DNA of 64,000 bases from Ginglymostoma cirratum (GCA_024137785.1 JAHRHZ010000070.1:6102575-6166574), one strand, 5' to 3'. Shown: positions 6,439 to 60,595, numbered from the stretch's first letter. The notes: a model not told the origin generated them from the letters alone. Made by a program: numbers and translations.

Positions 6439-6862
<424 letters not shown>

Positions 6863-7207
6863 TGAAGATGATGCTAAATTATCTAGCTTGTGAGACGCGC
6901 GTTCTAATGAATGTGGTTGATGTAAAAGTTACAAGTCAGTAATCTACATTATAAGCAAATTGATAAGCCAGTTTTGCTGATCCTTGTTATATTTGTGATT
7001 TTACAATGTAATTTTAGTGGCTATTTGTAAGTTTTTGTTTCACTGTGCACATCCTGATTGTGAGATATTTAGAGAATTCCTTATTTTGTAGCTCAATAAA
7101 TAGTCTAAAGATGGTTCATGAAGCACATGCACTGAGGCTTTGGAGTAGATCTGTAGCTCGGGTTGTGGGTGTTGAGCTTGGTTGGCTCGCCGAGCTGGAT
7201 TGTTGTT

Positions 7208-7251
7208 CCACAGACGTTTCGTTACCGTGCTTGGTAACATCCTCAGTGCAG
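7208..7251 (-). ncRNA. Minimal type I hammerhead ribozyme motif (mirror copy)
   Basis: Exact reverse complement of 9015-9058. Confidence 0.8.
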
Positions 7252-9014
7252 CCTCTGATGAAGCGTCGGTGTGTTTTCCTGCCTGGTTTTTAAACTCTGG
7301 GGTCCGTTGCGATGGATTGCCTCACTTCTGGGTTTCCTCCAAAGTGCAATCATATATGGGGTCGTGTTCAATGTGTTTATTAATAGCATGCTTTGTGGAG
7401 TGCCATGCTTCCAGGAATTCTTGTTCTTGTCTCTGCCTAGCCTGTCCCAGGATCTTGGTGTTGTCCCAGTCGAAGTCGTGGTTCTCCTTGTCCATGTGGA
7501 TTGAGATGAGTGAGTAGTGGTCGTGTCTTTTTGTAGCCAGTTGGTGTTCATGTACTCCTGTTGTTAGTTTCCTTCCTGTTTGTCCGATGTAGTGTTTCTC
7601 GCAGTCTCTGCATGGGATCTTGTAGATGACATTGGTCCTGTCCATGGTTGGGAGTGGATCTTTAGTTCGGGTCAGCACTTGTCGTGGGGTTGATGTGGGC
7701 TTGCGTACCACTCTGATTCCCAGTGGTCGTAAAAGTCTTGTGGTGAGCTCTGACGTGTCCTGATGTAGGGCAGTGTGATGAGTGTGTCAGGGCATGTAGA
7801 ATCTTTCTGATGCTGTTCCCATAGGCATCTCCTGACCCAGTTCTTTGGATATCCATTATCCTTGAACACTTGGAAGAGGTATTCCTCCTCCCCATGGCGT
7901 AGTTCTATGTTGCTGCAGTGTGTTGTTGCCCTTTTAAATAGTTTTGGCACGCAGCTTCGTTTGTGTGTGTTGGGATGGTTACTTTACGTTTAATGATGAC
8001 AAATGTGATGCAAAGACTGGAAAGGACGGCCCTTCCACTAATCCAACCTAAACCATGGATACGCTACGTAGATGACACCTTTGTCATCATTAAACGGACC
8101 AAACTAGAAGAGAGACACAAACTCATAAACAGCACCCTCACCAGAATAAGATTCACCAGGGAGGAGGAGAAGAACAAACAACTCCCATTCCTGAACGTCA
8201 TGGTAGAGCACAAGACAAATGGGGAACTGCAAACGAAAGTACACCGAAAAGCCACACACACGGACCAGGTATTGAACTTCAATCGTAACCATCCCAAACA
8301 CACAAACGAAGTTGCGTGCCAAAACTATTTAAAAGGGCAACAACACACTGCAGCAACATAGAACTACGCCATGGGGAGGAGGAATACCTCTTCCAAGTGT
8401 TCAAGGATAATGGATATCCAAAGAACTGGGTCAGGAGATGCCTATGGGAACAGCATCAGAAAGATTCTACATGTCCTGACACACTCATCACACTGCCCTA
8501 CATCAGGACACGTCAGAGCTCACCACAAGACTTCTACGACCACTGGGAATCAGAGTGGTACGCAAGCCCACATCAACCCCACGACAAGTGCTGACCCGAA
8601 CTAAAGATCCACTCCCCACCATGGACAGGACCAATGTCATCTACAAGATCCCCTGCAGAGACTGCGAGAAACACTACATCGGACAAACAGGAAGGAAACT
8701 AACAACAGGAGTACATGAACACCAACTGGCTACAAGAAGACACGACCAATACTCTCTCATCTCAACCCACGTGGACAAGGAGAACCACAACTTCGACTGG
8801 GACAACACCAAGATCCTGGGACAGGCTAGGCAGAGACAAGCACAAGAATTCCTGGAAGCATGGCACTCCACGAAGCATGCTATTAGTAAACATGTTGAAC
8901 ACGACCCCATATATGATTGCACTTTGGAGGAAACCCAGAAGTGAGGCAATCCATCGCAACAGACCCCAGAGTTTAAAAACCAGGCAGGAAAACACACCGA
9001 CGCTTCATCAGAGG

Positions 9015-9058
9015 CTGCACTGAGGATGTTACCAAGCACGGTAACGAAACGTCTGTGG
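9015..9058 (+). ncRNA. Minimal type I hammerhead ribozyme motif in the Penelope 3' terminal repeat
   Basis: ctgca-CTGAGGA-t-GTTACC-aagcac-GGTAAC-GAAAC-GTC-tgtgg: intact core, 6-bp stem II, palindromic ACGT in place of stem III, and a wobble-rich stem I. Confidence 0.8.
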
Positions 9059-9382
9059 AACAACAATCCAGCTCAGCGAGCCAACCAACCTCAACACATG
9101 CGCTGAGTATTCCGTATGTTGGGTTTTCATAAAAGTAAGTGTAAACTTAGGAAGTGAAGTATTTCAAATTGATCGATCTTTGCACCTAAGTTTGGAGAAA
9201 GACTGGAACTCAAAATTTGGAGCATTTTCTTTTATTTCAAATTTCACCAAACTCGAGCACTTTGATTACTTTCCTGTTGAGATGATTTAACTTTGAATCA
9301 ACATTCTGCAATTTTTAAATATAAAATAATATATTATGTGAAGGAAGGACCGATATGTTCAAGGTGCGTTTCTTTTTTCCAG

Positions 9383-9462
9383 AATGTAGCGATTCCAGTG
9401 AAAATGCCAATACCAGTAAAATCTAGTGAAGTTGCTGCTAAAAAGTCTCAACCAAGGGCAAG
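9383..9462 (+). CDS. AAK1: AAK1-like exon (NVAIPVKMPIPVKSSEVAAKKSQPRA)
   Basis: tttttccag|AAT ... GCAAG|gtagac, 80 bp. Resembles recalled human [27 protein letters not shown]. Confidence 0.88.
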
Positions 9463-9650: not shown

Positions 9651-9886
9651 GCTTACAGACCCAGTACCGACTACAGAGACCTCAATAGCACCTCGCCAAA
9701 GGCCAAAAGCTGGCCAGTCAACTCCATCTTCAAGCATTCTGACGATTCAGCCTGCTATGACTCCAAGGAAGAGATCTACTACACAGTTGGCCCCTCAACC
9801 CCCAGCTGTGGAGTTGGCCCCTCAACCCCCAGCTGTGGAGTTGGCCCCTCAACCCCCAGCTGCGCAGTTGGCTCCTCAACCATCAG
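9651..9886 (+). CDS. AAK1: AAK1-like exon ([22 protein letters not shown]...TPRKR plus LAPQPPAVE repeats)
   Basis: ctatag|G ... CATCAG|gtatgt, 236 bp. Conserved [13 protein letters not shown] motif. Confidence 0.92.
9784..9886 (+). repeat. Coding 27-bp tandem repeat, three full units and one partial
   Basis: (c/g)agttggcccctcaacccccagctg(t/c)g at 9784, 9811 and 9838; diverged partial copy at 9865. Confidence 0.95.
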
Positions 9887-10379
9887 GTATGTATTTATGT
9901 TCATAGCTGTATAATCTCTGAAAGTATTTTTAAAATTTAAATTCACTTGTTCACAGATAATTCCTTTCTTGTCTCTTGTCCACAAATTAGCATTGTTGCT
10001 GGCAATATGTTTAAGGGTGGGGGAAGTTTTCAACAGTTTTTAGTGGCATTGAACTAAGAGTTTAAAACAAATGTTACTCGGTGTTTCCTCAAGCCTAGGT
10101 GATGTCTGAAATATTGGTCTCCTTTTGAAATATAAGCCAATTTCTGTCTGCCTGCCTTGTTGTTTAGAACAAAATATTAACAGGACATGATACACATGGT
10201 TTCTGGGGTGATTATTCAGAAGTGCCTAGCTTGAATCATTTTTCAAGGGCCTGTTTCTTCGAATAATGCTGCTGGGTAGTGTGTCAACATGTTAAGAACA
10301 GCAACTATGAGCTAGCTGAGAATTGATTTTAAGAAGTATTTTTAAAAATATTTTTAAAAAGACGATCTAGTGGCTACTC

Positions 10380-11670: not shown

Positions 11671-12013
11671 TAATTGACTTTTAGTTTTTAAGCCTTTACA
11701 GTAGATTGACTGACTACACTTCACTGAGAACTCGACTGGTGCAATTGCAGACAATTTAAAGCTGGGATGAAGATTTATCAATTTAAAGAATTCAGATACA
11801 ATTCAAAATGTCAGTAACAGTTACGTTCAAAACATTGTTTTGAATCTCAGTTGCATAAGAAATTGGATTTACAATATAATTCACACCTCTGAGACTAGCC
11901 CGGAGCTATTCGGCTGACATTGACTCTATTCCAATGGAGCCCAGGACCGAAAAGGATGCCTATTGTGTGGAGATGGAGTGGAAATCTCAAAATCAACTGG
12001 GTATTGTTATTTG

Positions 12014-12241
12014 AGATAAAAGGTACTGCAGATGATGGAGAATCCGAGATAACAAGGTGTGGGGCTGGATGAACACAGCAGGCCAAGCAGCATCATAGAG
12101 CAGGAAAGCTTGACGTTTCAGGCCTAGACCCTTCATCAGAATGCAGGGTCTGAAGAAGGGTCTAGGCCTGATATGTCAAGCTTTCCTGCTCCTATGATGC
12201 TGCTTGGCCTGCTGTGTTCATCCAGCCCCACACCTTGTTAT
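12014..12241. mobile_element. Short palindromic non-autonomous Penelope-derived element with hammerhead motifs
   Basis: ~95-bp inverted arms around ~12141-12148. Perfect 17-bp target duplication CTGGGTATTGTTATTTG at 11997-12013 and 12242-12258. Sequence matches the terminus of the Penelope element at 59395. Confidence 0.88.
12109..12141 (-). ncRNA. Minimal hammerhead ribozyme motif
   Basis: Minus strand reads tt-CTGATGA-agggtctaggcct-GAAAC-GTC-aa. The + arm copy is degenerate (GATATGTC). Confidence 0.6.
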
Positions 12242-13996
12242 CTGGGTATTGTTATTTGTTCAGCTAGCACTGCATTTTCCAGTCTCTGACTCGTGCAGTA
12301 GTAACCCTTTGCAATCCTGACAAGTCACACACTCAAATTAACTAAGCAGCCTTCATCTGTTTGAAACCTGAATTGATAGATCTCTGAAAGACGTTCATTA
12401 TAATCTTAACTATGTTGCTGCCATATCAGAGAACCTAAAGAACTGAGAACTTAAACTTTCTATTCTTTGTAGTAATATAACTTGCAGATCAGAAATTATA
12501 ATGCATGTAGAAGAATACTGGCTATAAAAGGCAAATGTGATACGTGACACGGCTTCACCTATACTTCAGAATGCAAAAGTCATTGATTTTGCACTGCCAG
12601 AGGGGACCAAAGTTGGAAAAAGAATGGAAGATACAATGCTGCCTTACCTGCAGTGCAATCTGCACCCCCTTTGAACGTGGTTTCACCGCACGTTGTGGGG
12701 TCAGAGAATGAGAAATGCGACGTTACGTGAAACTCTGAATTTTAAGATATTGAGGTACCTCAAGTTGCCAGTTTTATGAATTTATTTGTTCAGACGTACC
12801 TATTAATAATTTAGTGCTGGGAGATATGAAAGTTCAATTTTCAAACCCACCTAGCTTTCAAAAATAATATTCTGAGATACTTAACTTATGCCCTGAGGTT
12901 CCAACAGTAAATCTTTAGGCCCTCCACTTCCAGTGCAACAAGTAGTAGTATTGGTCTGTGTTAACTATACATTTTAGGAACTGTGACATCTGGTAGGACA
13001 AGTAAAAAAAAACTTCGATGCGTTGTGACTTTGCACCAACATTCCTGTTCACTGCTCACATCTATCTTGATACTCCAGTTGATCCTTCCTTTGTGAGTAC
13101 CCCGTGCAGCTGTATTATGCTTTAAAAACTGGTCCCATTTTACCCTGGAAACTGTGACAGTCAGAGTTATATTGAGACCCGAGATCATCATTCTGGAAGC
13201 ATTGTCAGATTCAAATGTACATATCCAGAGCCACACAAAGCCAATTCCAAGAGGACTTTTGTGCCAGTTGGAAAATGGGTTGATGTGAGAGCTACATCAA
13301 TGCTGGGATTTCTACATTATTTATAACGTGAGTTGGATCAGTAACCGAATACATCCACAAATTTATTTTAGCTTATTGATTTTTATTCTCTGCTATGTCA
13401 AAGAGGGCTAAAACTCAACATGTCAATACCATATATAATTGCAGCTCTATTATCTACCATAATAGCTGGTCACTACCTGTAGATAATAATTGTGAATTCT
13501 AAACCACTTATGATGCAAAGAATTATCTTATCTGAACATCTTGGAAGTTTAATAGCCATGGGTTTTCATTTTGAAGCTTGGATATTGTTAGAAAAAAAAT
13601 TGCTGTCAGCTGGATTCCCATTGGTCCTTTGGATTTTAAGTCTTGAAGGCATCTTAACCCAAAGCTTACAATCAGGACTGCTGACATAATTAAATCATCA
13701 GTTTTTCAATGTCAAGGTAATGACTGCTGATTCAAAGAACCAGTATCAGAAATATTCAAGGAAAGAGCAGTTGTAAGTCAACTGAATTATGTGTACCAAG
13801 ACTCTGGCCGATAAGAAATTCTTGCGTGTAATTGACGAATCCCCTTTATTAAAAATTGTACATATCCAGACTCTGCAGTGCACAGGTCCCACTCATGACT
13901 TTTAGGCTGAATGATAAAAAAAAATTTGCATTTCAAATCTGTGAGCGAAACAGTGATCGCAGCATGTTAAACATCTTGAATTCTTCATCTGGACAG

Positions 13997-36399: not shown

Positions 36400-37480
36400 A
36401 TATGGAAAATTAATAGGGACCTGACTGTTAAAGGGTACGGGATACTTAGAAAGGATAGCTAGGATTGAAAAAGTGAAGGGGAGACTCAGTTAGTTAATTA
36501 AGGTGTTAGTATAACAGCTGACCCATGTACAGGAACAGTGATGTAGAAACAGTAGAAATGTGGATTGATTAAAGGCATGAAGTCACTTGTACAGCAATTG
36601 GGAGCAGTGTACAGGCCCCCAAACGGTATCTGCACTGTAACGTGGAGCATGAAGGAAGAAGTAATAAGAGCTTGACAGAAAGGCATGCGGATGATTGTGG
36701 GAAATTTTGATCTAATATCATCTGGTAAAGTCAGATGGACAAAAGTAGCCCAGATGACTTCATGGAATGTTTTCAGGATGAATTTGTAGAACATCATATT
36801 CTGGAACTGACCAGAATGTAGTCTATACTAGCCCTGGTATTGTGCCACAAGATGTGTTTGATTAATTAATGATCTTATCGTGAAGACACCCCATGGTGGT
36901 AGCAACTGTAATATGATTTGAATTTTACATTCAGTTTACTGGAAGGAAGATTAGGTCTGGGGCACTTTCTTTTAAATTTGGAAAGGATATTGAAGCATAT
37001 GGGCCACTTTTTAAAATCAAGGGTTGCCCACTTAAAACTGAGATTAGCCAGATTTTTTTTCTGAGCTTTGAGTGTCTGTTAACTTTTTTTCTGAAAATAT
37101 GTGTAAATCTTGATTCAGAGATAGTAGGAACTGCTAATGCTGGAGAATCTGAGGTAACAAGGTGTAGAGCTGGATGAACACAGCAGTCCGAGCAGGAAAG
37201 CTGACATTTCAGGTCAGGACCCTTCTTCATTTTCTGAAGAAGGGTCCAGACCTGAAATGTCACTTTCCTGCTCCTCTGATGCTGCTTGGCCTGCTGTGTT
37301 CATCCAGCTCTACACCTTGTTATCTCAGTAGAACTCTTGATTTTTTTTTATGCAGAGTTAGATTTTTATTAAGCAAGGAGGTGGTAGGCAGGAAAGAGGT
37401 TTTGAAGTTGCAAACAGATCTTATTGAATAGCGGAGCAGGCTCAAAGAACTTAATGGCCTACTCCTGCTCTTTGTTCACC
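36400..37480 (+). mobile_element. CR1 fragments (EN region and 3' end) hosting the second palindromic element
   Basis: gtgtacaggcccccaaac (VYRPP), gattgtgggaaattttgat, tail aatggcctactcctgctc. Confidence 0.6.
37117..37327. mobile_element. Second copy of the short palindromic Penelope-derived element
   Basis: Same arms (aacaaggtgtagagctggatgaacacagcag ... ctgctgtgttcatccagctctacaccttgtta). + strand CTGAAGA-agggtccagacct-GAAAT-GTC at 37234-37261. Degenerate TSD containing TCTTGATT. Confidence 0.85.
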
Positions 37481-45974: not shown

Positions 45975-48900
45975 TAGTACAGTACAGTACAGGAACAGGC
46001 CCTTCAGCGCATGATGTTGTGTTGAACATGACACCAAATTAAACTAATCCCTTCTGCATGCCCATGGCCCATATCCCTTCATTCCTTGTTTAGTCGTGTG
46101 CCTATCTAAAAGCCCCTTAAATGTTCCCATCATATCTGCCTCCACCACTACTCTTAGTAGCATGTTCCAGACACCTGCCAAACTTGTGCCCCATATCTCC
46201 TTTAAACTTACCCCTCCTCACCTTAAATGCATGCCGTCTAGTATCAGAAGTTTAAATTCAGGGTTGACAGTCAGAATCTTTTTCCCAATCAATGCCTCTC
46301 ATAATTTTATAAACTTGTTTCAAGTCTCCCCTCGGTCTCCACCACTCCAGAGAAAACAACCCCAGTTTGTCCAGCCTCTCCTCATAACTCATACCCTGTA
46401 ATCCAGGCCACATGCTGGTAAACCTCTTCTGTACCGTCTCCAAAACTGCCACATCCTGTAACGTGGTGACCAAAATTGAACGCAATACTCGAAGTGTGGC
46501 CTCACCAAAATTTTATAAAGCTTTTTTCCTGGCTCTTGTACTCAGTGTCCTGATCAATAAAAGCAAGCATGCCATACACCACCTTTTCCACCTTATCTAC
46601 TTGTTGGCCACTTTCGGGGAGCTTTGGACTAGGACCCCAAGATTCCTCTGTACATCAGTGCTGTTAAGGGTTCTGCCATTAACTCTATATTTTCCCTTAA
46701 TATTTGATCCTCTAAAGTTCAACAGCTCACACTTGCCTGGATTAAACTCCATCTGCCACTTCTCTGCCCATTTCTGCAACTAATCTAAATCCACTGTATC
46801 TTTGACAACCTTCTACACTATCCACAATTCCCCTGATCTTTGTGGCATCTGCAAACTTACTAACCCACCCATGTATGTTTTCATGCAAGTCGTTTATGTA
46901 AATCACAAGCAACAAGCACAGATCCCTGCAGAACGCTACTAGTCACGGACCTCCAGCCAGAAAAACACCTTTCCACCCCTACCCTCTGACTTGTATGGGC
47001 AAACCAATTCTGAATCCAAACACCCAAGTCCCTGTGGATCCCATGCATCTTGATCTTCTCGATGAGCCCACCATGAGGGACCTTGTTGAAAGCCTTACTA
47101 AAATCCATGTAAACAACATCCACTGCTCTACCGTCATCGATCACCCTCATTGCCTCCTCAAAAAAAAAATCAATCGAGTTAGTAAGATGTGACCTGCCCT
47201 GCACAAAGCCATGCTGCCTGTCCCTAATTAGGCCATGCTTTTCCAAATGCATGTAAATTGTATCCCCAAGAAACCTCTCCAGTAGCTTCCCAATCACCGA
47301 TGTGAGACTCACCTGCCTGTAATTTCCCAGATTATCTTTATTTGCCGTCTTGAATAGAGGAACAGCATCAGCGACCTGTCAGTCCTCAGGGACCTGTCCG
47401 GTGACTAGAGAGGATGCAAAGATCTTGGTCAAGACCCCAGCAATCTCCTTGCCTCGCTCAATAACCTCTGGTAGATCCCATCCGCCACTGGGGACTTACC
47501 CACCTTAATGCTTTTCAAGAGACCCAACACCACTTCTTTCTTGACCTCAAAATGCCATAGCATATTAGCATGTCCCGCACTATCCTGTATGTCCCTCTTG
47601 GTGAATACCAACGCAAAGTACTCATTTAGGATCTTGCCCATAGCCTCTGCCTACAAGCAGAATGTCACTGCATTATCCTTGCCTGGGCCTACATTCTCCC
47701 TTATTATTGTCTTGCTTTTAACATATGTATAAAATGCCTTGGGATTCTCTTTAACCCTACTTGCCAAGGACATTTCATCATCCTTCCTTGCTCTCCTAAT
47801 TTCCTGCTTGAATTCTTTTTTGCTTTCTTTATATTCTTCATGGGCCCTGTCCAATTTTAGCTTTCCAAACCTTACATGTGCTTCCTTTTTCTTTTTGACT
47901 AAATTCGCAACCTCCCTCATCATCCAAAGGTCACATGCCTTGCTATCCTTACAGATCTGTTCCTTAATATCCCGGTGACTGTTAGGGGTGGCGCTATAAT
48001 ATAATCCCATTAGAATGATTGCACCTTTCATATTTTTGAGCTCTACCCAAATTGCCTCAGTGAATGAGCCCTCCAGTATGTCCTTTGATTAGTAATGCAA
48101 CTCTTCCACCTCCCTCTCTATCTCATGTAAAACATCAGAACACTGACATGTCGAGCAGCCATTCGTGTCCCCCTCTCAACCAGGTCTCTAATGGCTACAA
48201 CATCGTAATCTCCTGTATTGATCCAGGCTCTAAGTCCATCTGCCTTACCCATAATACTCCTTACATTGAAATAAACAAACTTCAGCCCATCTGTCCCATT
48301 GTGTTCATTAACCTGTCCCCGTCTGTCTGTCCTTTCAGAATCACTGGTTATAACATCAACCTTCCCTTCAATTCCTCCACTAGCTGACCTGACGCTCTGG
48401 TTCCCAACCCCCGCCACTCTAGTTTAAACCCTCCCAAGTAGCACTAGCAAACCTCCTTGTGAGGATATTGGTTCCTATCCAGTTTAGGCGCAACCCGTCA
48501 CTTCTAAACAGGTCACCCCCACTCCAGAAGAGGTCCCAATGATCCAAGAACCTGAAACCCTGTCCTCTGCGCCAATTCCTTAGCCATGCATTCTTCTGAC
48601 TGCTTTCCTATTTCTACACTTGCTACTACGTGGCACTGGGAGTAATCAAGAGATTACACCCTTTAATGTCTTGCTGTTTAACTGACTGCTTAGCTCCCTG
48701 AATCCCTGGTGCAAGGCATCATTCCTCACTTTGCCCATATCATTGGTATCATTGGTACCATCATGTACCATGAGCTTTAACTCATCACCCTCCCCTTTCA
48801 AGATGTCCTGCAGCCATTCAGTGACATCCCTGACCCTGGCAGAAGGGAGGCAACCCACCATCCAGGAGTCATGTCTCGGCCACGGAAGTGGCTGTCTCTA

Positions 48901-49989: not shown

Positions 49990-50732
49990 CTATACGGTAA
50001 ATGGAAAAGCCCTGGGGAAAATTGATGCACAGAGAGATCTGGGTGTTCAGGTTCATTGCACCCTGAAGGTGGCAACGCAGGTCGATAGAGTGGTCAAGAA
50101 GGCATACGGCATGCTTTCTTTCATCAGACCGGGTATTGAATACAAGAGTTGGCAGGTCATGTTACAGTTGTATAGGACTTTGGTTCGACCACATTTGGAA
50201 TACTGCGTACAGTTCTGGTCGCCACATTACCAAAAGGATGTGGATGCTTTGGAGAGGGTGCAGGGGAGATTCACCAGGATGTTGCCTGGCATGGAGGGCA
50301 CTAGCTATGAAGAGAGGTTGAGTAGATTAGGGTTATTTACATTAGAGAGACTGAGGTTGAAGGGGGGCCCTGATTGAGGTGTACAAAATCATGAGAGGTA
50401 TAGACAGGGTGGATAGCAAGAAGCTTTTTCCCAGAGTGAGGGACTCAATTACTGGGGGTCACGATTTCAAGGTGAGAGGGGAAAAGTTTAAGGGAGATAT
50501 GCATGGAAAGTTCTCTGCGCAGAGGGTGGTGGGTGCCTGGAAGGCATTGCCAGTGGGGGTGGTAGAGGCGGGCACGATAGCATCATTTAAGATGTATCTA
50601 GACAGATACATGAATGGGCAGGGAGCAGAGGGATACAGATCCTTGGAAAATAGGCGACAGGTTTAGATAGAGGATCTGGATCGGCGCAGGCTTGGAGGGC
50701 CGAAGGGCCTGTTCCTGTGCTGTAATTTTCTT
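49990..50732 (+). mobile_element. Young 5'-truncated CR1 LINE 3' end, nested in an older CR1
   Basis: ORFs LYRTLVRPHLEYCVQFWSP and YKIMRGIDRV; 3' UTR ggccgaagggcctgttcctgtgctgt. Confidence 0.9.
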
Positions 50733-53347: not shown

Positions 53348-55670
53348 TAGAACATAGAACATTACAGCGCAGTACAGGCTATTCGGCCCTCGATGTTGCG
53401 CCAACCTGTGAAACCAATCTGAAGCTCATCTAATCTACACTATTCCATTATCATCCATATGTTTATCCCATGACCATTTAAATGCCCTTAAAGTTGGCGA
53501 GTCTACAACTGTTGCAGGCAGGGCATTCCACGCCCTTACTACTCTCTGAGTAAAGAATCTACCTCTGACATCTGTCCTATATCTATCACCCCTCAATTTA
53601 AAGCTATGTCCCCTTGTGCTAGCCGTCACCATCTGAGGAAAAAGGCTCTCACTGTCCACCCTATCTAATCCTCTGATCATCTTGTATGTCTCTATTAAGT
53701 CACCTCTTAACCTTCTTCTCTCTAATGAAAACAGCCTCTTGTCCCTCGGCCTTTCCTCATAAGACCCTCCCTCCATACCAGGCAACATCCTGGTAAATCT
53801 CCTCTGCACCCTTTCCAATGCTTCCACATCCTTCCTATAATATGGCGACCAGAACTGTACGCAATACTCCAAGTGCGGCCGCACCAGAGTTTTGTACAGC
53901 TGCAATGTGACCTCACGGCTCTGAAACCCAATCCCTCTACCAATAAAACCTAACACAATGTACACCTTCTTAACAACCCTAACAACCTGGGTGGTAACTG
54001 TCAGGGATCTATGCACATGGACACAGAGATCTCTCTGCTCATCCACACTACCAAGAATCTGACCATTAGCCCTGTACTCTGTATTCCTGTTACTCCTTCC
54101 AAAGTGAATCACCTCACACTTTTCCGCATTAAACTCCATTTGCCACCTCTCAGCCCAGCTCTGCAGCTTATCTATGTCCCTCTGTTACCTGCAACATCCT
54201 TCCGCACTATCCACAACTCCACCGACTTTAGTGTCATCCGCAAATTTACTAACCAGTCCTTCTACGCCCTCATCCAGGTTATTTATAAAAATGACAAACA
54301 GCAGTGGCCCCAAAACAGATCCTTGCGGTACACCACTAGTAACTGAACTCCAGGATGAATGTTTCCCATCAACCACCACCCTCTGTCTTTTTCCAGCTAG
54401 CCAATTTCTGATCCAAACTGCTAAATCACCCTCAATCCCATGCCTCCGAATTTTCTGCAATAGCCTACCATGGGGAACCTTATCAAATGCTTTACTGAAA
54501 TCCATATACACCACATCAACCGCTTTACCCTCATCCACCAGTTTGGTCACCTTCTCAAAGAACTCAATAAGGTTTGTGAGGCACGACCTACCCTTCACAA
54601 AACCGTGTTGACTATCCCTAATCAAATTATTCCTTTCTAGATGATTATAAATCCTATCTCTTATAATCCTTTCCAACACTTTACCCACAACCAAAGTAAG
54701 GCTCACTGGCCTATAATTACCAGGGTTGTCTCTACTCCCCTTCTTGAACAAGGGGACAACATTTGCCATACTCCAGTCTTCTGGCACTATTCCTGTAGAC
54801 AAGGACGACATAAAGATCAAAGCCAAAGGCTCTGCAATCTCCTCCCTAGCTTCCCAGAGAATCCTAGGATAAATCCCATCCAGCCCAGGGGACTTATCTA
54901 TTTTCACACTTTCCAGAATTGCTAACATCTGGCATGGGTAACAAACCAGAGATAACAACTCTGTTTGTTCTAGCTCTAAGCTTCCACCCTAGCTCCTTGT
55001 ATTTCTGCCTTACATCCCCATCCCTTTTCCTACCTATGTCATTGGTGCCTATGTGGACCATGACTTGGGGCTGCTCCCCCTCCCCCTTAAGGATCCCAAA
55101 AACACGATCCGAGACATCACGGATCTTGGCACCTGGGAGGCAACACACCAACTGTGAGTGTCTCTCGTTCCCACAGAATCTCCTATCTGTCCCCCTAACT
55201 ATGGAGTCCCCAATGACTAATGCTCTCCTCCTCTCCCCCCTTCCCTTCTGAGCAACAGGGACAGACTCTGTGCCAGAGACCTGTACCCCATGGCTTGGCC
55301 CTGGTAAGTCTCCCCCCCCGCCCCCCCCCCCCAACAGTATCCAGAACAGTATATTTGTTATTGAGGGGAACAGCCACAGGGGATCCCTGCACTGTCTGCC
55401 TGTTCCCTTTCTGCCCCCTGACTGTAACCCATCTACCTTTTTCCTGTACCTGAGGTGTGACTACCTCCCTGTAACTCCCCTCAATTACCCCTTCAGCTTC
55501 CCGAATGATCCGAAGTTCATTCAGCTCCAGCTTCAGTTCCCTAACGCGGTTTCCGAGGAGCTGGAGTTGGGTGCACTTCCTGCAGATGAAGTCATTGGGG
55601 ACACTAGTGGTGACCCTTACCTCCCACATTCTACAGGAGGAGCATGCAACTGCCCTAACATCCATTCTGA
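53348..55670 (-). mobile_element. Young CR1 LINE with internal deletion (ORF1 esterase joined to RT; endonuclease missing)
   Basis: ORF1 Cys-rich N-terminus (CSSCRMWE...CRKC) and SGNH esterase motifs (LVIGDSIVRG, CLPGA, VHIGTND). RT motifs [40 protein letters not shown]. 3' tail (GTTCTAT)n. Confidence 0.93.
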
Positions 55671-59335: not shown

Positions 59336-59399
59336 CTCTTACTAGAGGAGACTCTTACTAGAGGAGACTCTTACTAGAGGAGACTCTTACTAGAGGAGA
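59328..59399. repeat. Perfect 16-bp tandem repeat, 4.5 copies
   Basis: (AGAGGAGACTCTTACT)4 followed by AGAGGAGA. Confidence 0.95.
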
Positions 59400-60595
59400 T
59401 AGTAGTAACTGCCGATGCAGTTAACAAGGTGTAGAGCTGGACGAACACAGCAGGCCAGGCAGCATCAGAGGAGCAGGAAAGCTGCCAGTTTGGATCTGGA
59501 CCCTTCTTCAGAAATGGGGGAGGGGGAGGGGGACTCATAAATAGAGAGAGGGGGAGGTGATGATGGAAGGTGGATAAAGGAGCAGATAGGTGGAGAGAAG
59601 ACAGACAGGTTAAGGAGGCAGGGATGAGGCTAGTATGTAGGAAGTGGGGGTGGGGGTTGGTCAGTGAGGTGGAAGGAGCGGACAGGTGGGAGAAAAGACG
59701 GACAAGTCAAGTAGGTCGGGACGAGCTGGGCTGGTCTTGGGATGAGTTTGGTGGTGGGAAGATTTTGAAGCTTGTGAAGTCCACATTGAAACCATTGAGC
59801 TGCAGGGTTCCCAAGCGGAATGAGGTGCTGTTCCTCCAGCCTTCGGTGGCATCGGTGTGGCACTGGAGGAGGCCCAGGATGGACATGTCGTCCAAGGAGT
59901 GGGAAGGGGAGTTGAAGTGGTTCACAACTGGGAGGTGCAGTCATTTGTCACGAACCGAGCATAGGTGTTCCACAAAGCGGTCTCCAAGCCTCCGCTTGGT
60001 TTCTCCGATGTAGAGGAGGCCACATCGGGAAGAGTGGATACAATATACCACATTAGCAGATGTGCAGGTGAATATTTGTTTAATGTGGAAGGTTTTTTTG
60101 GGCCTGGGATGGTGGTGAGGGGTGAGGGGGGTGGTGTAAGGGCAGGTGTAGCACTTCCTGCGGTTGTAGGGAAAAGTGCCGGGGCAGGGGGGCTAGTGGG
60201 GAGTGTGGAGCGGACAAGGGAGTCACAGACAGGGTGGTCCCTCCGGAAGGCAGATAAGGGTGGGGAGGGGAAAATGTCCTTGGTAGTGGGGTTAAATTGC
60301 AGATGGCGGAAGTGGCGGAGGATGATGTGTTGAATCCGGAGGTTGGTGGGGTGATACGTGAGGATGAGGGGAATTCTGTCTTTGTTGTTATTACGGGGAG
60401 GGGGTGTGAGGGATGAGGTGCCGGAAACACGAGAGATGTGGTTGAGGGCACTTTCGACCACTGTGGAGCGGAAATTGCGGTCCTTGAAAAACTCATCCTG
60501 GGAGCAGATGCGTCGGAGGCGAAGGAATTGGGAATAGGGGATGGCATTTTTGCAGGAAGGTGTATTCTAGGAAGCTGTGGGAGTCGGTAGGCTTA
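59395..60595 (-). mobile_element. Penelope-like element (Neptune-type), 5'-truncated and frameshifted
   Basis: Minus-strand peptides RIPLILTYHP, Cys linker FPYNRRKCYTCPY, GIY-YIG FTCTSANVVYCIHSSRCGLLYIGETKRR and HFNSPSHS...LGTLQ. Its terminus matches the palindromic mini-elements; the hammerhead is degenerate. Confidence 0.88.

Follow-up and report, generated by a model that had tools for sequence, protein, structure and literature searches.

The two arms of a dead Penelope/Poseidon element, inserted head to head in an intron of a Ginglymostoma cirratum kinase gene, have most of their derived changes in common, and part of these changes recur in other copies of the same family along the contig. 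We attribute this sharing to non-allelic gene conversion after insertion, between the arms of one copy and among copies lying within about 2 Mb of each other, a reading to which sequence comparison leads us to give a probability of roughly two in three. The hairpin insertion itself is of an ordinary, known kind; the new part is the family-wide distance curve in the megabase range. Positions below refer to the window, the whole stretch of 64,000 nucleotides that was analyzed; the genome probed amounts to 4.36 Gb, and one assembly underlies all results.

The insertion sits in an intron of an AAK1/BMP2K-type kinase gene (6773-9382, 2,610 bp, in agreement with the 2.6 kb given in the initial annotation). 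The exon at 6439-6571 (plus strand), supported by PDB matches and by a spliced contig joint, is most similar to AAK1 (E=2e-23, 83 bits) and BMP2K (80.6 bits), scores too close to tell the two paralogs apart. An X1 contig is spliced from 6571 to 6669 with GT..AG borders, across the intron upstream of exon 6669-6772 (plus strand). The latter exon, known from contigs and sequence reading, lies 5' of the insertion-bearing intron, and the exon on its 3' side (9383-9462, plus strand) was read in the sequence from splice signals and an open frame. A Pro/Gln-rich exon of the same gene contains an in-frame 27-bp tandem repeat in about four copies (9785-9892). Elsewhere in the window, two pairs of old dispersed repeats, 67-72% alike, occupy 46352-47498 and 53727-54896, and 50024-50435 and 53632-54043, respectively. 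An Rfam search of the window yielded only chance hairpin matches, at 12047-12242.

In self-BLAST, the left arm (7169-7982, minus strand), a frameshifted, 5'-truncated copy with RT thumb, GIY-YIG, and a hammerhead-like end, is identical to the right arm (9097-8285) at 794 of 814 positions; the arms are thus 97.5% reverse complements, with 19 substitutions and one gap, as near-perfect as the initial annotation had them. The sum of 16266 given there for the mirrored ORF and ribozyme coordinates holds at the outer ends, whereas the inner ends sum to 16267 owing to a 1-bp indel. The right arm (8285-9097, plus strand; self-BLAST and family alignment) carries the endonuclease motif VIY..YIG at 8636-8683 and terminates without a tail, its final CAC being microhomologous to the TSD. 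The one-sided Penelope tail, identified by family comparison, belongs to the left arm only (7137-7168, minus strand). Two frameshifts, a 1-bp deletion at 8507 and a 1-bp insertion at 8915, are common to both arms. The whole unit is bounded by one 13-bp TSD, whose left copy CACATGCACTGAG (7124-7136) and right copy CACATGCGCTGAG (9095-9107) proved identical at 12 of 13 positions when compared. Element sequence overlaps both TSD ends, with CAC at 9095-9097 and CTGAG (CTAAG in the family) at 7132-7136, the last five nucleotides of the left copy. The proposal of a single insertion event with one TSD is borne out, and the inverted layout is typical of the class.

The arms are separated by 302 nt. 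The RT spacer of about 300 bp described earlier is right in its length and in its unpaired forward RT segment (8008-8284, plus strand, with YVDD at 8065-8076), but its first part, at the centre junction, is an inverted 21-nt RT piece (7987-8007, minus strand), which according to self-BLAST copies 8076-8096. The pattern of this junction has one match genome-wide at up to two mismatches. A minimal hammerhead-like core, GCA-CTGAGGA-stem-GAAAC-GTC-TGT, was recognized by eye at 9017-9056 (plus strand; mirror 7210-7249, minus strand), Rfam giving no hammerhead match in the window at E<=1; within the host pre-mRNA, this core would be sequestered in the predicted duplex.

X1 contigs with zero differences span 6743-7168 and 7954-8035. 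The second of them crosses the end of the arm (7982-7987), having at least 31 letters on either side of it, and extends just 28 letters past the joint 8007/8008. Since the contigs match the window at the left boundary and at the centre, a fold-back artefact of the assembly, a possibility raised in the initial annotation, is unlikely. Contigs inside the arm are dominated by other copies of the family. In the X5 and X12 runs, which come from a related organism whose flank differs from the window by 13 substitutions and four gaps in 653 nt, contigs reach 23 nt into the element past the TSD. This suggests that the insertion is older than the split from that organism, the 23-nt entry falling below the bar of 31 letters.

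The assignment to Penelope-like elements, made earlier from the window, agrees with the RT and GIY-YIG regions, with the family layout, and with published descriptions. Pfam returned no matches on the window fragments. In a full-length family copy (L050), to which these fragments are about 92% identical in DNA, the 514-aa frame matches RVT_1 above the cut-off (E=1.5e-12) and GIY-YIG below the Pfam cut-off (E=0.41), with VIY..YIG and the following R, H, and E residues visible. The RT-EN linker of this copy is without Cys, and its EN has CRDC and then H..H; according to the part of PMC8557442 consulted, Neptune and Nematis are marked by a Zn-finger-like Cys motif between RT and EN, and CxxC..H..H lies within EN. 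The first 78 nt of the copy recur at the end of the unit as a terminal redundancy (pLTR). A pattern for the minimal hammerhead core matches both focal arms and 130 of the 217 arms scored in the family, and two family-state probes have 202 and 594 exact matches genome-wide.

Family loci were gathered by searches, not by a census. The head-to-head layout with both 3' ends in view, already published for Penelope elements (in the parts seen of PMC3846280 and PMC8557442), occurs at 78 of 145 non-redundant loci, and exactly one arm is tailed in 75 of these 78 inverted pairs. TSDs were found in 57 of the 75 one-tail pairs (median 13 bp, range 10-18), the focal locus standing outside these automatically scored cases. 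Microhomology averages 1.47 nt where the tail is absent and 0.81 nt where it is present, compared with an unsimulated chance figure of about 0.35. The copy at C40:4,348,500 was excluded from the counts as a segmental duplicate: L110 and L111 (G000:C40:4,341,400 and 4,348,500), spaced by 7 kb, are 99% alike including their flanks. At another locus (L054, G000:C14:28,132,688-28,133,300 and 28,135,694-28,136,306), a 607-bp inverted pair 2.4 kb apart is 100% identical and misses the usual 3' end on one side; it is a recent inverted duplication, a case of full conversion, or an assembly artefact.

Compared with 28 other copies, the focal arms have 33 derived changes in common, against 13 and 7 private ones. 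Each arm differs from the family majority by 4.7-5.3%, and the unpaired spacer by 5.4% (15 of 277), most of the arm divergence from the majority being common to both arms. Because the arms are about 5% diverged and mostly in the same way, their near-identity is not proof of youth. A 28-mer bearing the deletion matches the focal arms only, genome-wide at up to two mismatches. Among the candidates scored (40 of 8,140 and 40 of 5,199), the most similar other copies reach 91-94%.

The same phenomenon is seen throughout the family. Among the 78 pairs, the fraction of rare non-CpG changes that is common to the arms correlates with arm length (rho 0.65), being 0.04 below 200 bp, 0.11 at 200-500 bp, 0.25 at 500-800 bp, and 0.45 above 800 bp; the focal locus ranks second, with 0.76. 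Total divergence is about constant (2.1-2.7%) across these length classes. The dependence on arm length is also present inside one and the same 180-nt region (0 of 38 versus 14 of 130 rare changes, p=0.04). Sites common to the arms, 104 versus about 12 expected by parallel mutation in 35 pairs, form tracts (230 runs versus 283 expected in 29 loci); the focal locus alone gives p=0.012 for all sites and p=0.11 for rare sites only. The pooled runs test was made on substitutions, with deletion columns left out. No clear gradient of sharing from the hairpin centre was seen.

The spectrum of the common changes is neutral (61 nonsynonymous, 19 synonymous, and 5 stops, the neutral synonymous share being 0.28). 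Mismatches between TSD copies, found at 13 of 116 sites in high-sharing loci versus 8 of 144 and 28 of 371, show that these loci are not younger. GC bias is weak, with 69 W>S versus 60 S>W changes among near-shared alleles and 1,494 versus 1,567 overall. Copying from ADAR-edited RNA was considered as a source of the common changes and rejected, the 22:8 ratio of A>G to T>C being no excess over the base ratio of 382:146.

Sharing extends to other loci. An independent insertion 965 kb from the focal one (G000:C70:7,074,210-7,075,120) has a different TSD and centre, and its left arm contains 11 of 15 focal derived alleles inside the tract 8360-8580 (plus strand; mirror 7686-7906), compared with 3 of 17 scorable ones outside it; it lacks the focal 1-bp deletion. 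Other alleles are common to the two right arms, and one is common to the two left arms; the allele pattern among the four arms is reticulate. A 25-mer with two of the alleles is present in three arms in the 4.36 Gb, the focal pair and the 965-kb copy, versus 202 matches of the family state, and a one-allele probe has 12 matches, five of them on the focal contig within 1.9 Mb.

Over the family, the number of rare alleles in common per kb is 5.7 for loci less than 0.1 Mb apart (10 pairs), 2.7 at 0.1-0.5 Mb (8 pairs), 1.7 at 0.5-1.3 Mb (16 pairs), 1.4 at 1.3-2.5 Mb (27 pairs), 0.34 at 2.5-5 Mb (30 pairs), and 0.24 beyond 5 Mb (163 pairs), the background between loci on different contigs being 0.27 (8,628 pairs). 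The curve uses one piece per locus and 137 of the 145 loci, eight loci picked by their alleles being left out; near pairs were chosen by position from the family-state probes. Under label permutation, the observed value of 2.95 (66 pairs) compares with a mean of 0.47 and a maximum of 1.04 in 5,000 rounds. Between loci, too, the common alleles form tracts (125 runs versus 148, p=0.0004, in 13 near pairs with at least four alleles in common, using the best arm pair per locus pair). Of 71 two-arm cases, 50 show them on a single arm, and one locus pair uses all four arm pairings. The 5' part, for which fewer donors exist, has 2-3 times more sharing. For instance, two copies 411 kb apart (L168, C22:7,104,700-7,106,700, and L140, C22:7,516,200-7,518,700) are 98.1% identical (1170/1193) in the 5' part and 94.3% (667/707) in the 3' part; the highly similar 5' part is bordered by an internal deletion, and both parts are of full age, with derived sites at 36 of 1,135 and 15 of 603 positions, respectively.

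Of the centre junctions, 1 in 107 is clearly common between loci. L131 (G000:C17:29,450,113) and L075/L188 (C17:30,726,566), 1.28 Mb apart, have the same junction although their TSDs differ and their tails are on opposite arms; the junction occurs in no other real copy genome-wide; a third match to the pattern (L191) was discarded as being without family sequence. A second similarity between junctions, of 85%, involves different contigs. Three loci on different contigs (L166, C13:55.08 Mb; L099, C22:21.42 Mb; L148, C9:28.56 Mb) have six to nine rare alleles in common and probably represent an older subfamily. The insertions themselves are not significantly clustered: among 86 loci, 11 pairs lie within 1 Mb versus 10.7 expected, and three lie within 100 kb versus 1.1 (p=0.10).

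A second, Neptune-like Penelope family served as a control (55 placed and 29 background loci; five divergent loci were dropped, and the conclusion is the same with them in). It is 10-30 times denser than the Penelope/Poseidon family, with 6,681 exact 28-mer matches versus 202-594, and somewhat younger (3.5% versus 4.4% from the majority). Sharing per kb in the same distance bins is 0.21, 0.11, 0.13, 0.16, 0.16, and 0.12 versus a background of 0.10; the excess is at most 0.1 per kb, so the effect does not extend generally to repeats of similar age. An excess of this size is expected if a fixed number of events is split among local donors. If contact in the host were simply the limit, the rates of the two families should be similar, and more sharing would be expected in the second one; only a model of donor dilution would fit. 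The near-flat curve therefore means that the effect is either diluted by donors or specific to the Penelope/Poseidon family. Short palindromic stubs of the second family are present in the window at 148-208, 12013-12248, 37118-37330, and 59396-59514, and it also has later inserts inside copies of the first family, such as that of 2.35 kb at G000:C17:30,723,736-30,726,092.

These observations can be put into the following history. At insertion, the endonuclease would have cut both strands 13 nt apart, consistent with published work, and reverse transcription would have started from both DNA ends, at two neighboring sites of the RNA, leaving one tailed and one tail-less arm with short microhomology at both ends. 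Such two-end priming is likely because cleavage and extension of both strands and two adjacent initiation sites have been described (in the part of PMC11167929 consulted). The truncated products were presumably then joined at a centre unique to the locus. Later breaks in family copies would be repaired by homologous recombination, the template being either the opposite arm or a copy lying in cis no more than about 2 Mb away. Such conversion appears to need long homology, as almost none is detected between arms shorter than 200 bp, and competition among many donors likely dilutes it. In the host pre-mRNA, the arms are predicted to form a duplex of about 810 bp, which is likely edited as a by-product. 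The breaks could come from the element's own endonuclease, from cruciforms, or from a meiotic hotspot. The derived changes lie in tracts, do not follow a tree, and depend on homology length and on distance, as conversion implies. That the exchange came after the insertion is suggested indirectly, by the age of the TSDs and by the full-age 3' parts.

A tentative possibility is that machinery specific to the element rewrites its neighbors, the endonuclease cutting existing copies, or cDNA or chromatin-tethered RNA acting locally, so that exchanging neighborhoods arise, each about one chromatin domain in size (up to about 2 Mb).

Sharing could also have been inherited at birth. If RT copied chromatin-tethered transcripts of dead neighbors with template switching, daughters landing within about 2 Mb would receive neutral mutations on both arms. 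Such local retrotransposition would account for the family specificity and the scaling with 1/density, for the neutral common changes, and for the centre junction found twice 1.28 Mb apart, a case that conversion and local copying at insertion both explain; moreover, introns are retained in Penelope-like elements, for which unspliced RNA may serve (PMC3846280 and PMC8557442, as far as seen). We nevertheless consider it unlikely: sharing occurs in tracts, is mostly one-armed, and in one pair takes all four arm pairings; neither the probes nor the scored candidates (40 of 8,140 and 40 of 5,199) provided a whole-length source for the focal arms; TSDs are not younger; insertions are not significantly clustered; and arm length matters within the same 180-nt region.

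Alternatively, a new copy might have taken only its 3' ends from active RNA, its free cDNA ends invading nearby copies and their extension on DNA importing the 5' part or the centre of a neighbor. The richer sharing in 5' parts, the common junction with swapped tails, and the internal deletion that bounds the highly similar part of the 411-kb pair would suit this scheme, and donor dilution would follow from the lack of an allelic template at that time. Completion of this kind is improbable, however. High-sharing pairs should then have 3' parts and TSDs that are young, against 15 of 603 versus 36 of 1,135 derived sites and TSDs of no lesser age, and the scheme leaves unexplained the arm-to-arm tracts of changes that are later and private to the locus, the deletion at 8507 among them.

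The likeness of the arms might instead reflect a function of the hairpin, which the initial annotation saw as a candidate influence on splicing or a source of endo-siRNA for the kinase gene. RNA folding, suggested there as a check, predicts a duplex at -1724 kcal/mol in the intron of a gene with a spliced X1 contig; it has 809 mirror pairs, up to 236 of them in unbroken succession. In the available part of PMC5625713, Penelope is the one massively hyper-edited LINE besides CR1 in a lizard, and the elephant-shark brain has about 200,000 editing sites. A regulatory role is very unlikely: the stem lies 286 nt from the 3' splice site (the earlier figure of about 290 nt to exon 9383 was accurate), its distance to the 5' splice site is about 400 nt, the common changes are neutral, and arm likeness is explained without selection. 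Further, because dozens of sampled copies have an equal layout (that of the 78/145 loci), the focal copy is not singled out as regulatory. Finally, although co-polishing can affect near-identical arms with only 300 bp between them and the sample did contain one segmental duplicate (removed) and the 100% identical 607-bp inverted pair on C14, an assembly or polishing artefact behind the fold-back or the common alleles is highly improbable, since the TSD, tail asymmetry, and unique centre suit a real insertion, independent contigs agree at the left boundary and centre, read-level errors would presumably not reach over 1-2 Mb, and the denser second family lacks such a signal in the same assembly.

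In its structure, the element resembles the EN+ Penelope/Poseidon elements of Arkhipova 2013 (PMC3846280) and Craig 2021 (PMC8557442), which, in the parts consulted, have RT followed by a C-terminal GIY-YIG without a Cys linker, head-to-head inversion, a one-sided tail of 30-40 bp, and a TSD of 10-18 bp; a hammerhead-like end is a further, putative likeness. The part of Frangieh 2024 (PMC11167929) consulted reports that both strands are cut in vitro and that initiation takes place at two adjacent sites, which suits the one-tail rule, counted here (75/78); it places initiation at non-homologous sites, whereas here short microhomology with the target is found at both ends. Exchange between arms or neighbors is absent from the examined parts of these three papers.

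In its exchange, the family is comparable to neighboring Alu copies (Aleshin & Zhi 2010, via partial views of PMC8230782 and PMC6598467), in which an excess of non-diagnostic sharing falls with distance; the range there is about 10 kb, whereas the excess seen here is still present at 1.3-2.5 Mb and varies with the length of homology. Conversion between LTRs of the human Y chromosome (Trombetta 2016, PMC4921805, seen in part) likewise has tracts of tens to hundreds of bp, preference for cis donors, and element-specific rates, one listed donor being about 1.1 Mb away, and sex-chromosome palindromes also convert from arm to arm. The Y LTRs are single cases and the palindromes exceed 10 kb, in contrast to the family-wide curve, sub-kb arms, and negative second family described here. 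Cohesin-driven homology search (PMC12701822, partial text) operates at about the megabase range in cis, with ectopic donors at +441 and +563 kb used; that work concerns engineered breaks in mammalian cell lines, and its link to the present genome is ours. The literature searched, supplements and most subscription papers aside, contained no family-wide curve for megabase-range conversion among retrotransposon or Penelope copies.

For the dating of insertions, this means that identity between arms or between copies would give too young an age, the focal arms being 2.4% apart and each about 5% from the majority. Conversion that keeps the arms alike would also prolong intronic dsRNA without selection. 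The curve of about 2 Mb reaches some hundredfold past the Alu figure and matches the megabase homology search seen in cell lines (PMC12701822, in the part available), and sparse repeat families could gauge the range of homology search in the vertebrate germ line. The contrast with the denser family offers a sharp test of donor dilution versus Penelope-specific activity. If element-specific machinery is at work, these copies would represent a natural long-term record of the range of germ-line homology search and a way for a retrotransposon to spread or edit locally.
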